49,598 bases of DNA from Minisyncoccota bacterium (GTDB lineage: Bacteria; Patescibacteriota; Minisyncoccia; Phycocordibacterales; UBA5272): positions 1 to 49,598 of the forward strand of contig JAMIGE010000033.1 of assembly GCA_035905815.1 (NCBI GenBank), in the 5' to 3' direction. Numbering within the stretch: position 1 is the stretch's first letter; every line of letters starts with the position of its first letter. Below, one piece after another: positions 4,618-14,213 of this stretch. The position numbers and the translations under genes were made by a program. The notes beneath the pieces are model-generated. The model did not search any database. It was not told the origin of the DNA and saw nothing but the letters and a program-made list of their open reading frames with translations.

Positions 4618-4806
4618 ATTATAACTTTAGCATGTTATATCAAAACAAATCCACCATGTCTAGCTGGGGCAATTTAATGAACAGTTATTGGCCTATTTTA
4701 CTATTGACAAACTACTTATAATCTGATATACTTGGGACATAGTCTTGGATATGGTATTCAGGGCAGCTATTTCAAAACCGGGGCATGTGCCTCAGAAAGA
4801 TACAAA

Positions 4807-5349
4807 ATGAAGTCAAATATCGCTCTCACAGTTATTAACGAGCAGGAGAACGGGCGCATACCAGTAATGATCAAGTCCATCGGACTTGTCATTGCGGGGC
4901 TGGCAATTGCCCTCCTCATGACCGTGTTTGCGCCCGCGCATGCGAATTCAGTCAACCAGCCTGTGGCGTACAGCTGCGGCCCGGACTGCATACTGCCAGC
5001 GCTACAACCACCTGAGACCGACATGGCATATATGGTGAATAGTGGACGGGCAGAGCGTAGCTCATCTGCGTATCATGTGCAAATGGGTAAGCCAGCCAGC
5101 GTCGACATCGCGTCGACAGACGAATGTTTTGTGTCGATCTCGCCGTTTAACAGCGGTAAGTCGCTGACAAAAGTTGCCAATTATCACCTCTACAACGTAG
5201 AGGTAGATATTCAGGCAATCGGTGCGGCCCGCGGCATGTGCCTGCCGGAGGTCAAGCATACGCTGAAGCTCGCCTGCGGTACGAAGAAGGTGAGTGTCGA
5301 CCTTACGTTCTTCGACACATGCCAGATCATGGTCCGGCCGAAGAAGTAA
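4807..5349 (+). CDS. Secreted or membrane-anchored hypothetical protein
   Basis: In-frame ATG at 4807; the track starts at a TTG at 4732. The hydrophobic segment IGLVIAGLAIALLMTVFAPAHA-NS looks like a signal peptide. The gene is GC-rich relative to its flanks. Confidence 0.55.
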   Translation: MKSNIALTVINEQENGRIPVMIKSIGLVIAGLAIALLMTVFAPAHANSVNQPVAYSCGPDCILPALQPPETDMAYMVNSGRAERSSSAYHVQMGKPASVDIASTDECFVSISPFNSGKSLTKVANYHLYNVEVDIQAIGAARGMCLPEVKHTLKLACGTKKVSVDLTFFDTCQIMVRPKK

Positions 5350-5369
5350 TAGAAATTCATCGGCATCAC

Positions 5370-5399
5370 ACACCCCTCAGCGAGGGGTGTATTTGTTTG
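5370..5399 (+). terminator. Intrinsic terminator
   Basis: ACACCCCTC (5370-5378) pairs with GAGGGGTGT (5382-5390), followed by ATTTGTTTG. Confidence 0.75.
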
Positions 5400-5452
5400 T
5401 ATTATGACAGCAATCGCTTGCATACATTAATCATTTATGATATAGTGATTAT

Positions 5453-5608
5453 GTACTACTGAGGGCCCAGCGTTGCGTGGCCTTCGCATGCGGTGGTACG
5501 TTGGGGTAAGTCCGCCTCCCCGTCGGCACCCACAAATCTGCACTTACTGCTCACCTCCCCCCGAGCGTGCAGGTTATGGGGTGGCCGAATGGTCACCCCT
5601 TTTCTTTT
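5453..5608 (+). ncRNA. Candidate small RNA of unknown family, about 155 nt, GC-rich
   Basis: Promoter: TTGCAT (5418-5423), 17-nt spacer, TGaTATAGT (-10 at 5441-5446). Terminator: GGGGTGGCC-GAAT-GGTCACCCC (5578-5599) followed by TTTTCTTTT. Internal hairpins are GGGG(5503-06)/CCCC(5518-21), and CTGCAC(5538-43)/GTGCAG(5567-72) with loop ACCTCCCCCC (5553-5562). The transcript start is only estimated. Confidence 0.55.
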
Positions 5609-5782
5609 GCAAGATTTCTAAATTAATAGTGATCTGTATTAGTTTCATACCAGCGCAGTTAAGCGCTAGTGGTTATACACTTTCGGACTGGGCCCAGGCC
5701 ATGCTTCGTAAATATAAGGTGATTTAATACAAGTGGAGTAGGTCTTTCAAATTGCAAATATATGTGTTATAATATAGCTCAT

Positions 5783-5858
5783 GCGCGAATAGCTCAGCTG
5801 GTAGAGCACTCGACTGATACTCGAGCGGTCCCAAGTTCGAATCTTGGTTCGCGCACCA
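5783..5858 (+). tRNA. tRNA-Ile (anticodon GAT), CCA encoded
   Basis: Manual cloverleaf: GCGCGAA / GCTC-AGCTGGTA-GAGC / CTCGA-CTGATAC-TCGAG / CCAAG-TTCGAAT-CTTGG / TTCGCGC-A-CCA. TGTTATAAT (-10 at 5768-5773) lies 9 nt upstream. Confidence 0.95.
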
Positions 5859-5867
5859 AAGTAAAAC

Positions 5868-6006
5868 AATCCCTCACGGGGTTGTTTTACTTTGGTGCGA
5901 GCCGGACCGCGACTGGCGGGAGGCGGGGTAGCGAGCCTGGCCAGCAGGACAGGACTTGTGACCACCAATTCGAAATCCCTCACGGGGTTGTTTTACTTTG
6001 GTGCGA
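5868..6006 (+). repeat. 33-bp direct repeat (5868-5900 and 5974-6006) flanking a 73-bp GC-rich segment
   Basis: aatccctcacggggttgttttactttggtgcga occurs twice, 106 bp apart. The first copy is the 3' arm of a 20-bp hairpin (5854-5897) that begins inside the tRNA-Ile CACCA end. Confidence 0.9.
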
Positions 6007-6091
6007 TTTATATTTGTAAAACTAAATTACAATCATAGAATATGTGAATATGCTCTAGTGACAAATTTTTTATTTTTGTTATTATATAGTT

Positions 6092-6256
6092 ATGATTATA
6101 AACAAGCTTAGTAGAAAAAGTTTCGCTTCTGAAAAGTATACCTTACCCATATCTTCGTATTTAAAAGAGGAGATTGATAGTTCAAGAAAATTGTTTGCAA
6201 ATAAAACTTCGAAAACATATACTAGTAAAAGTATTTTGAAGTCGCTTGGGTTGTAA
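6092..6256 (+). CDS. Putative antitoxin (54 aa) of the ParE-like toxin
   Basis: My own translation gives MIINKLSRKSFASEKYTLPISSYLKEEIDSSRKLFANKTSKTYTSKSILKSLGL. It is below the track size cutoff. It ends 12 nt before the toxin ATG, the usual antitoxin-first layout. No family motif recognised. Confidence 0.4.
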   Translation: MIINKLSRKSFASEKYTLPISSYLKEEIDSSRKLFANKTSKTYTSKSILKSLGL

Positions 6257-6268
6257 TTTCTATTATGT

Positions 6269-6553
6269 ATGTACAAAGTAGTATATAACGATATATCGAG
6301 AAAGGATTTATCGGATATTTTGTTTTTCTATAAAAATATAGATCAATTAATATTGCAAAGTTTTTTGGAAGAGGTTTGCAAAATTGAAAAAGTATTATCG
6401 AATACACCAGAAATTTACAGGATAAGGTATGAGTCAGTAAGGCGTGTCAATTTTATTAATTTTCCATTTTGCTTATTTTATCAAATTGATGGTAAGTTTG
6501 TTCAGATTCTTAAAATTGTTCACCAAAGCCGTGATGTTGTATTTTGGCCATAA
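6269..6553 (+). CDS. parE: ParE/RelE-family type II toxin
   Basis: The 94-aa protein ends FPFCLFYQIDGKFVQILKIVHQSRD. This matches the ParE pattern (aromatic-x-i-x-Y ... v-x-I-l-x-i-x-H-x-x-R-D). Confidence 0.7.
   Translation: MYKVVYNDISRKDLSDILFFYKNIDQLILQSFLEEVCKIEKVLSNTPEIYRIRYESVRRVNFINFPFCLFYQIDGKFVQILKIVHQSRDVVFWP

Positions 6554-12686: not shown

Positions 12687-14213
<1,527 letters not shown>

Follow-up and report, generated by a model that had tools for sequence, protein, structure and literature searches.

Regulatory small RNAs (sRNAs) have hardly been described in bacteria of the candidate phyla radiation (CPR), and our literature search combining CPR taxon names with "sRNA" returned no paper holding both. 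Contig JAMIGE010000033.1 of a Minisyncoccota bacterium (49,598 nt, analysed at full length and called the window here) raises the question of whether the interval between a gene for a 180-aa protein and a tRNA-Ile gene encodes such an RNA and, if so, how that RNA would act. The window also carries MurB, a class I tRNA synthetase, GrpE, DnaK, four tRNAs and a 16S rRNA gene at ~40% G+C, and its 16S looks CPR- or Parcubacteria-like, a placement that is our own. We find that the interval very probably contains a real, structured sRNA gene. Our preferred reading, to which we assign a probability of roughly 0.55, is that the gene specifies a ~156-nt, independently transcribed and intrinsically terminated regulatory sRNA of a narrow CPR-like lineage, which would act in trans by base-pairing through C-rich loops. 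Because its promoter and terminator are conserved and its stems carry compensatory base changes, the candidate offers studies of riboregulation a well-supported point of entry into these reduced and largely uncultured organisms.

Boundaries, conservation and fold of the RNA gene

The gene is delimited by a promoter and an intrinsic terminator (Table 1), both of which recur in its homologues. In the four distinct variants of the RNA (those of the window and of the homologous loci L063, L065 and L071), aligned at the predicted start, the promoter reads TTGCA-17-TGATATA(G/C)T-6-GTACT, with sequence and spacing kept; the homologue -10 boxes are TGATATAGT or TGATATACT, with GTACT 6 nt further on in each case. 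The promoter spacer and the 100 nt upstream are 44% identical between the two clades of homologues, which is the background level. At the other end, seven of the nine pairs of the terminator stem are G-C and the tail reads TTTTCTTTT (5600-5608); in L065 and L071 the stem is different yet fully paired, with four pairs changed on both sides. The upstream open reading frame (ORF) has its own terminator ahead of the sRNA promoter in all four loci (5370-5390 in the window copy, from the terminator scan). Bounded in this way by promoter and terminator, the RNA gene is, as far as sequence features tell, an independent transcription unit.

Table 1. Positions of the RNA gene, its parts, its homologues and the candidate pairing sites (window coordinates unless a locus is named)
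Feature	Position	Strand	Description
-35 box TTGCAT	5418-5423	+	Read in the sequence; TTGCA and its distance to the -10 box are shared by L063, L065 and L071
Extended -10 box TGaTATAGT	5438-5446	+	TG at 5438-5439, TATAGT at 5441-5446; 17-nt spacer after the -35 box
Predicted sRNA transcript, ~156 nt	5453-5608	+	5' end placed from the promoter and the onset of conservation
Hairpin P1	5453-5499	+	Outer stem GUACUACU/GGUGGUAC, inner stem GGGCC/GGCCU, conserved apex GCGUUGC; independently predicted in four variants
Hairpin P2	5502-5534	+	Conserved loop CCUCCCCGU(C) at 5515-5524
Hairpin P3	5536-5574	+	Outer stem AUCUGCAC/GUGCAGGU, inner stem GCUC/GAGC, loop ACCUCCCCCC at 5553-5562
Hairpin P4, intrinsic terminator	5578-5608	+	9-bp stem GGGGTGGCC/GGTCACCCC at 5578-5599, GAAU loop, U-tract UUUUCUUUU; terminator scan
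sRNA copy in L063	L063:1334-1490		95% identical to the window copy
sRNA copies in L065 and L071	L065:1144-1303; L071:4850-5010		65% identical to the window copy, 98% to each other
Upstream neighbour gene	4807-5349	+	180-aa protein with N-terminal hydrophobic helix and conserved cysteines; small membrane or secreted protein
Candidate loop-2 site GGACCGCGACUGGCGGGAGGCGGG	5904-5927	+	Presumed tRNA-Ile 3' trailer; speculative
Candidate loop-2 site in L065	Downstream ORF, +118		-19.8 kcal/mol; shuffle p = 0.0075
Candidate loop-2 site in L071	ddl, +25		-16.9 kcal/mol; shuffle p = 0.015

A preliminary description of this DNA had named the promoter TTGCAT-17-TGaTATAGT, the terminator and the loops, all of which are read at the coordinates it gave, and the discrete non-coding unit that it drew between promoter and terminator agrees with the conserved boxes and the terminator scan. 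Its wording of a near-consensus promoter went too far: the boxes are present and conserved, but the -35 box matches TTGACA at only 3/6 positions and the promoter is absent from the promoter-scan list. The promoter is nevertheless credible because boxes and spacing are conserved among homologues, and its strength sits in the extended -10 box. The statement that the RNA is far more GC-rich than its surroundings holds against the window as a whole (61% versus ~40% G+C) but not against the upstream ORF, which is itself at 50-59% G+C, so that the sRNA is no lone GC spike. The entire patch of 50-59% G+C extends over 4750-6006, taking in the 180-aa ORF, the sRNA, tRNA-Ile and a repeat-bracketed insert, and is flanked by DNA at 25-35%.

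The sRNA lies downstream of a gene of the 180-aa family wherever the contig reaches far enough. Copies in three further loci (L062, L101 and L102) are identical to that of the window, and L062 also encodes the identical protein. Sequencing runs SRR18360467, SRR26192775 and SRR26192774 contain the identical locus, and SRR28520272, SRR30303865 and DRR438536 contain variants of it. Between the window and the distant clade (L065 and L071), the flanks are ~44-45% identical, as against 65% for the sRNA. Conservation and covariation in relatives, on which the preliminary description had made its proposal depend, were thus found in L063, L065 and L071. The same loci bear on the idea of a cis-acting leader or attenuator, riboswitch-like, that would govern the following gene by premature termination. 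In every locus a structured RNA with a terminal terminator does stand upstream of a gene on the same strand. However, that gene differs: the window and L063 share tRNA-Ile, whereas L071 has ddl and L065 another ORF. The tRNA-Ile of the window moreover has a promoter-like site of its own (TTCAAA-16-TATAAT with an upstream TG, from the promoter scan), and a TATAAT stretch (gtgctataat) can be seen by eye between the sRNA terminator and the next gene in L071 and L065. With no Rfam riboswitch or leader match and no conserved anti-terminator competing with the terminator stem, we regard attenuation as very unlikely.

Folding of the window RNA gave a minimum free energy of -65.5 kcal/mol (z = -2.6), and 1/200 shuffles folded equally well; the single-sequence fold beats its shuffles, but not dramatically. 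The case for more than chance therefore rests on homologue conservation and covariation and not on the single sequence. When each of the four variants was folded on its own, the minimum-free-energy structure contained the same four hairpins, one more than the three of the preliminary description, which had missed the 5' hairpin at 5453-5499. The stems differ between clades in ways that keep them paired. In the P1 inner stem, two pairs have both partners exchanged: one goes from G-U to U-A, the other from G-C to C-G. In P2 the stem is CCG/CGG in the window versus CUAAUC/GAUUAG in L065 and L071, and the closing outer pair goes from U-A to A-U. The outer stem of P3 shows an A-U to G-C exchange, and in the distant clade CUUG/CAAG forms the inner stem. 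Within clades, all differences fall at unpaired positions or turn G-U into G-C or U-A. The strand is plus, since several G-U pairs would become C-A mismatches on the opposite strand.

A covariance model (R1) built from the window and L063 alone, with our own structure, scored the full-length window RNA at 194.9 bits and also recovered L071 (69.5 bits) and L065 (63.5 bits), neither of which was in the model (E ~1e-17 to 1e-19). In the model-based alignment, 95.5% of pair cells were standard pairs, compared with 35-48% when the 3' partners were slid by 1-3 columns; 10 pairs were changed on both sides (covariation score 0.251 vs ~0.04). A manual structural alignment paired in all 182 of 182 cells, with 14 double and 5 single compensations and none broken, and RNAalifold applied to it recovered the four-hairpin structure. 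A MAFFT alignment of the four RNAs was set aside in favour of the manual and model-based ones, as it misaligned P2 and yielded a partly wrong RNAalifold structure.

It could be argued that the interval has no function and is a GC-rich intergenic remnant, conserved merely through close genome kinship. There are indeed only two lineages, and all members occupy the same syntenic spot. Nonetheless, flanks that have fallen to ~44% identity between the lineages next to an sRNA at 65%, promoter boxes and a terminator that are intact, and changed stem positions that are all still paired make this a very improbable account. A coding function is not supported either: the lengths of inter-clade indels are not divisible by three, and none of L063, L065 and L071 retains the internal AUG. 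Two small ORFs (5473-5727 and 5493-5621) were considered as small-protein genes and rejected, neither being conserved.

The C-rich loops and the 16S tail

The conserved unpaired parts of the RNA are GCGUUGC at the apex of P1, CCUCCCCGUC in the loop of P2 (loop 2), UCCCCCC in the loop of P3 (loop 3), and GCAGGUUA. Both loop 2 and loop 3 are identical in 4/4 variants, and the stems around them are rebuilt. Their predicted probability of being unpaired is 0.66-1.0, compared with 0.37 for the whole RNA. Loop 3 contains six consecutive Cs in all four variants, and loop 2 has six Cs with a U interruption (CCUCCCC). In the window, the C-rich stretches read ACCTCCCCCC at 5553-5562, TCACCTCC at 5551-5558 and GCCTCCCC at 5514-5521.

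The preliminary description had drawn attention to a match between the sRNA and the canonical 16S tail, which it held to be missing from this genome's own 16S. The second part of that statement is correct. The 16S gene (12687-14213) ends at 14199-14213 with GGAUUAAUUCCAAA, where the Rfam consensus has GGAUcACCUCCUUu with the tail GGAUCACCUCCUUU, and thus lacks CCUCC, the core of the anti-Shine-Dalgarno (anti-SD) sequence. A subgroup of Parcubacteria has been reported before to have lost this motif (PMC9297842). Consistent with the tail, SD-like words (GGAG, GAGG, AGGA) occur at -20 to -4 in 8/44 genes versus 5/44 in an intragenic control. In addition, 16 of the 44 genes have a TATAAT-like -10 box ending 5-12 nt before the ATG (e.g. 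10036, 15691, 26201, 35102, 36836, 38734, 40305), a pattern that suggests widespread leaderless mRNAs.

These features invite the idea that the sRNA is a surrogate or mimic of the anti-SD, displaying the canonical 16S tail UCACCUCC and thereby supplying SD recognition in trans or competing for the SDs of AGGAG-bearing genes. The 16S of this genome reads GGAUUAAUUCCAAA in place of GGAUCACCUCCUUU, the window variant bears UCACCUCC at 5551-5558, and the CCUCC core is kept in loop 2 of all variants. The match itself, however, belongs to the window variant only: L063 has UCAACUCC (CAACUCC) at this place, and L065 and L071 have UUGUCCCCCC. Since UCACCUCC is not conserved, what selection preserves is the C-run and not resemblance to the 16S tail. 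Nor is there SD usage for a surrogate to read, given the near-control count of SD-like words and the apparently leaderless genes, and AGGAG-bearing starts pair with the loops at -12 kcal/mol or weaker. We know of no mechanism by which a free RNA recruits the ribosome. Furthermore, the known anti-SD loss in Parcubacteria has been described without invoking any such RNA (PMC9297842). A surrogate role is therefore highly improbable. What remains of the comparison with anti-SD-like, RsaE/RoxS-type loops made in the preliminary description is that the loops are conserved and predicted to be accessible, which would fit pairing of that kind; the mimicry of the 16S tail does not extend beyond the window.

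The wider interest of the locus is that the C-rich-loop design of sRNAs recurs in a genome without an anti-SD and with little or no apparent SD use. G-rich targets cannot be ribosome-binding sites here, and the regulatory logic must therefore differ from simple SD occlusion. Beyond these points, the sRNA is an ordinary kind of gene.

As an observation on the 16S gene itself, the helix 6/V1 region (~12760-12830) has 69 nt, compared with 14 nt in the Rfam consensus; insertions in rRNA genes are common among CPR bacteria (PMC9297842).

Known families, targets and mode of action

The RNA matches no Rfam family. At gathering thresholds, Rfam found only the 16S and four tRNAs in the window and nothing at 5400-5780. 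A permissive cmscan (E<=10 for the region, E<=5 for L063 and L065) returned no RsaE, no 6C, no housekeeping RNA and no riboswitch or leader, and ARAGORN found no tmRNA in the window; the preliminary description had likewise been unable to match the RNA to SRP, tmRNA, RNase P or 6S. The best matches in the region at E<=10 were a terminator-only match and ar14 (RF02344), the latter with 15.2 bits (E = 1.4), well below its gathering score of 58.8. An RNase P-like reading of GGGGUAAGUCCGCC and a GUAAGU/ACUUAC pairing were also considered and rejected by eye, neither being conserved in L065/L071. We conclude that the RNA represents a new sRNA family of narrow distribution and familiar C-rich-loop design. 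Like trans-encoded sRNAs in general, it has a conserved promoter and terminator of its own and a structure supported by compensatory changes, here between two lineages.

Three groups of sRNAs share parts of this design. In 6C/B11 of Actinobacteria, consecutive hairpins with cytosine runs in their apical loops are followed by a terminator, an arrangement also seen here; the 6C loops bind G-rich segments of mRNA by direct pairing and need no chaperone for it (PMC6486639). The sRNA described here is about twice as long, has an extra 5' hairpin with the GCGUUGC apex, and its loop 2 CCUCCCCGUC is not a pure C-run; its host is low-GC and CPR-like, whereas 6C hosts are high-GC Gram-positive bacteria. 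RoxS/RsaE of Firmicutes is likewise an independent gene with an intrinsic terminator and several single-stranded C-rich regions, which serve as seeds against G-rich or SD regions (PMC4409812, PMC6158497). Correspondingly, the two C-rich loop motifs of our RNA are conserved and predicted to be single-stranded, and a seed role is predicted for them. Sequence, size and architecture differ from RoxS/RsaE, and the host is CPR-like, not one of the Bacillales/Firmicutes with Rex/ResD/SrrAB control; moreover, SD blocking of the RoxS type cannot apply, because the genome shows no SD usage and no anti-SD. The third group, αr14 (ar14, RF02344)/NfeR1 and CcsR-type sRNAs of Alphaproteobacteria, has two hairpins with anti-SD-like C/U-rich loops and then a terminator, and the sub-threshold cmscan alignment sets both loops of our sRNA on the two CCUCCUCCC loops of ar14. 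The motifs here are CCUCCCC and (ACC)UCCCCCC rather than CCUCCUCCC, and the phylum is unrelated.

By analogy with 6C/B11, RoxS/RsaE and αr14/CcsR, the most likely mode of action is as follows. P1, at the 5' end and with the conserved GCGUUGC at its apex, would play a structural part and P4 is the terminator, while P2 and P3 would expose one conserved, unpaired C-rich loop apiece (CCUCCCCGUC and UCCCCCC, respectively). In C-rich-loop riboregulators, duplexes with mRNAs start from exposed cytosine runs, are rich in G-C pairs and often form without the help of a chaperone. Once expressed, the sRNA would thus use its loops as seeds, acting in trans on G-rich stretches (GGGG or GGAGG-like) of other transcripts, and the resulting duplexes would alter the translation or stability of those targets.

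The search for targets within the window did not single out an mRNA. Among 44 gene starts tested against either loop, the best pairing reached -12 kcal/mol and no good target was predicted; the start regions, with a median of -5.3 kcal/mol, paired more weakly than intragenic regions (median -9.6 kcal/mol). This speaks against the AGGAG-bearing genes, which the preliminary description had put forward as natural targets. The conserved leader that precedes the upstream ORF paired with the sRNA no better than shuffled versions of it did. Exact complementary words of at least 9 nt across the window numbered 38, no excess over a rough expectation of ~50 derived from word length and window size without a shuffle.

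One site stood out for loop 2. The window site in the presumed tRNA-Ile trailer (Table 1) forms the best non-self loop-2 duplex on both strands of the 49.6 kb (-27.3 kcal/mol; the next is -21.8), with a shuffle p of 0.0025 over 400 nt or 0.009 when only the 74-nt GC-rich patch was shuffled. When the next 240-400 nt were examined in each context, using dinucleotide shuffles that ignore codon structure, L065 and L071 each yielded a site as well, whereas the upstream controls gave p = 0.26, 0.62 and 0.06. We treat these loop-2 sites in the next downstream transcription unit, seen in 3/3 contexts, as a weak lead and not as a finding. They would suit a locally acting regulator, in which the sRNA pairs mainly with the adjoining downstream transcript, that is, the tRNA-Ile trailer as a sponge in the window, ddl in L071 and the ORF in L065. 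Better-than-shuffle sites in three distinct contexts and the rank of the window site on both strands speak for it. On the other hand, the pattern is post hoc, the shuffles take no account of codons, and GGAGGUGGAGG in ddl encodes a glycine-rich motif; the positions of the sites also differ (trailer, +25, +118), the trailer site has no homologue by which its conservation could be judged, and the antisense similarity between trailer and sRNA amounts to only a 9-mer. Local action in this sense is possible but rather unlikely.

Precedents exist for a sponge. RoxS has a dedicated sponge RNA, RosA (PMC8216469). The speculative trailer sponge proposed here would parallel that arrangement. In E. coli, the 3' external transcribed spacer (3'ETS) of glyW-cysT-leuZ reportedly acts as an sRNA sponge, as Lalaouna et al. 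are said to have found (2015, Mol Cell). Like the 3'ETS of leuZ, the tRNA-Ile trailer holds a site complementary to the sRNA, in this case to loop 2; unlike it, the link here is computational (p ~0.01) and confined to one genome, and the trailer transcript is presumed.

Several points weigh against a trans-acting, base-pairing sRNA as a whole. The four distinct sequences represent effectively two lineages, so that each compensatory pair counts as one event and no R-scape-type statistic is possible, and the model-based and manual alignments were both fitted to the structure. The family is very narrow in pattern scans, and its conservation could partly reflect recent common ancestry. No good target was predicted at the gene starts, and the best pairing site, which came to light post hoc, is in a tRNA trailer. 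Finally, the C-rich loops could equally be protein-binding sites.

This last point amounts to a reading of its own, in which an RNA-binding protein (e.g. a KH-domain poly(C) binder) recognises the C-rich loops and the GCGUUGC apex, and the RNA titrates it as a sponge or serves as a scaffold. Three unpaired motifs that stay invariant while the stems change, the want of a convincing mRNA target in the window and a GCGUUGC motif without an evident pairing role would all be explained. However, no candidate binding protein is adjacent, the neighbours being a membrane or secreted protein, tRNA-Ile and ddl, and loop-2-complementary sites are enriched just downstream. In addition, repeated C-rich loops followed by a terminator are an established signature of pairing sRNAs (PMC6486639, PMC4409812). 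We consider protein binding a possible but rather unlikely alternative to base-pairing in trans.

A more far-reaching version of the base-pairing model can also be formulated. The sRNA would be a dedicated reader of the remaining GGAGG-type elements in an anti-SD-less Parcubacteria-like lineage, its loop 2 CCUCCCCGUC pairing with the next downstream unit in every context and the tRNA-Ile trailer serving as a built-in sponge; with the near-invariant leader that precedes the variable surface-protein gene upstream included, the locus would amount to an exchangeable cassette with RNA regulatory elements on either side. We offer this as conjecture and think it quite doubtful.

Distribution and neighbouring features

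As far as our searches reached, the sRNA is confined to a narrow, low-GC, CPR-/Parcubacteria-like lineage. When GTDB species genomes were scanned for the two loops in their window form (CCGCCTCCCC...CTCACCTCCCC), a pattern overly specific to that variant, the 56 matches all lay in unrelated and mostly high-GC genomes. In JGI metagenomes, CCTCCCCG..TCCCCCC..GCAGGTT, the pattern conserved across the clades, gave 29 matches, 0/29 with flanking similarity, and in IMG/VR it gave none. On 87 unrelated loop-pattern loci, R1 scored at most 10.6 bits throughout. BLAST of 4700-6010 against plasmid and phage collections returned tRNA-Ile as the sole match, and there are no tandem copies of the sRNA within the window. 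At L103 and L104, loci of the beta-lactamase-fold orthologue, a different 187-aa gene is present and neither the ORF family nor the sRNA.

The 180-aa protein encoded upstream has no Pfam or NCBIfam match, and the AlphaFold model of this neighbouring protein has a predicted local distance difference test score (pLDDT) of 42. Five related protein clusters (P0002-P0006) were recovered, all from SRA-run (Logan) assemblies. In L101 (160-1863) and L102 (2-1636) a divergent paralogue, P0006 (193 aa), stands in place of the ORF body, with an IS30-like transposase (HTH_38 + rve) upstream; over the stretch that starts at the ORF terminator, includes the sRNA and reaches tRNA-Ile, both loci are 100% identical to the window. 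Because they differ in the ORF only while the flanks are identical, the protein gene behaves as a swappable cassette between conserved, RNA-bearing flanks.

The same gene is preceded by a leader of ~70 nt (4738-4806) with a promoter of TTGACA at 4706 and TATACT at ~4729 (region 4706-4806). This leader is near-invariant in seven loci and more conserved than the coding sequence that follows it. One hairpin, GUCUUGGAUA/UAUUCAGGGC, is invariant, and a second, GGGGC-AUGU-GCCUC, covaries (GGGG-UACG-CCCC, GGGGU-AUAU-ACCCC). Gene-calling programs take the leader for an N-terminal part of the protein, in two different frames, and it is for this reason likely to be non-coding; it is probably a regulatory leader. 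It has no Rfam match.

Between the sRNA terminator and the tRNA-Ile promoter, ~100 nt at ~5620-5725 are missing in L063. Small palindromes rich in G+C (CCAGCGC..GCGCTAG and GGACTGGGCCCAGGCC) occur in this stretch, which has no significant similarity to the sRNA. Further downstream, the 3' end of tRNA-Ile(GAU) and the sequence that follows it (5852-6006) form a 22-bp hairpin (5852-5873 with 5878-5899). Two copies of a 33-nt direct repeat, AATCCCTCACGGGGTTGTTTTACTTTGGTGCGA, at 5868-5900 and 5974-6006 bracket an insert of 73-74 nt at 68% G+C, which could be a duplication or an integration scar. Short-read assemblies break at this repeat, and L062 ends at its first copy. The trailer insert, like 5620-5725, was considered as a degenerate copy of the sRNA and rejected, the local alignments not being significant, and Rfam matched the trailer only with microRNA-precursor models, which match any long hairpin.

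Look-ups for a 183-aa neighbour and for a 54-aa putative antitoxin found no contigs encoding exactly the same protein. The latter is encoded by an ORF within 6092-6553, right after the tRNA-Ile repeat region, where it is followed by a ParE-family toxin gene (PF05016, 6269-6553); judging from this arrangement, the two are probably a type II toxin-antitoxin pair.

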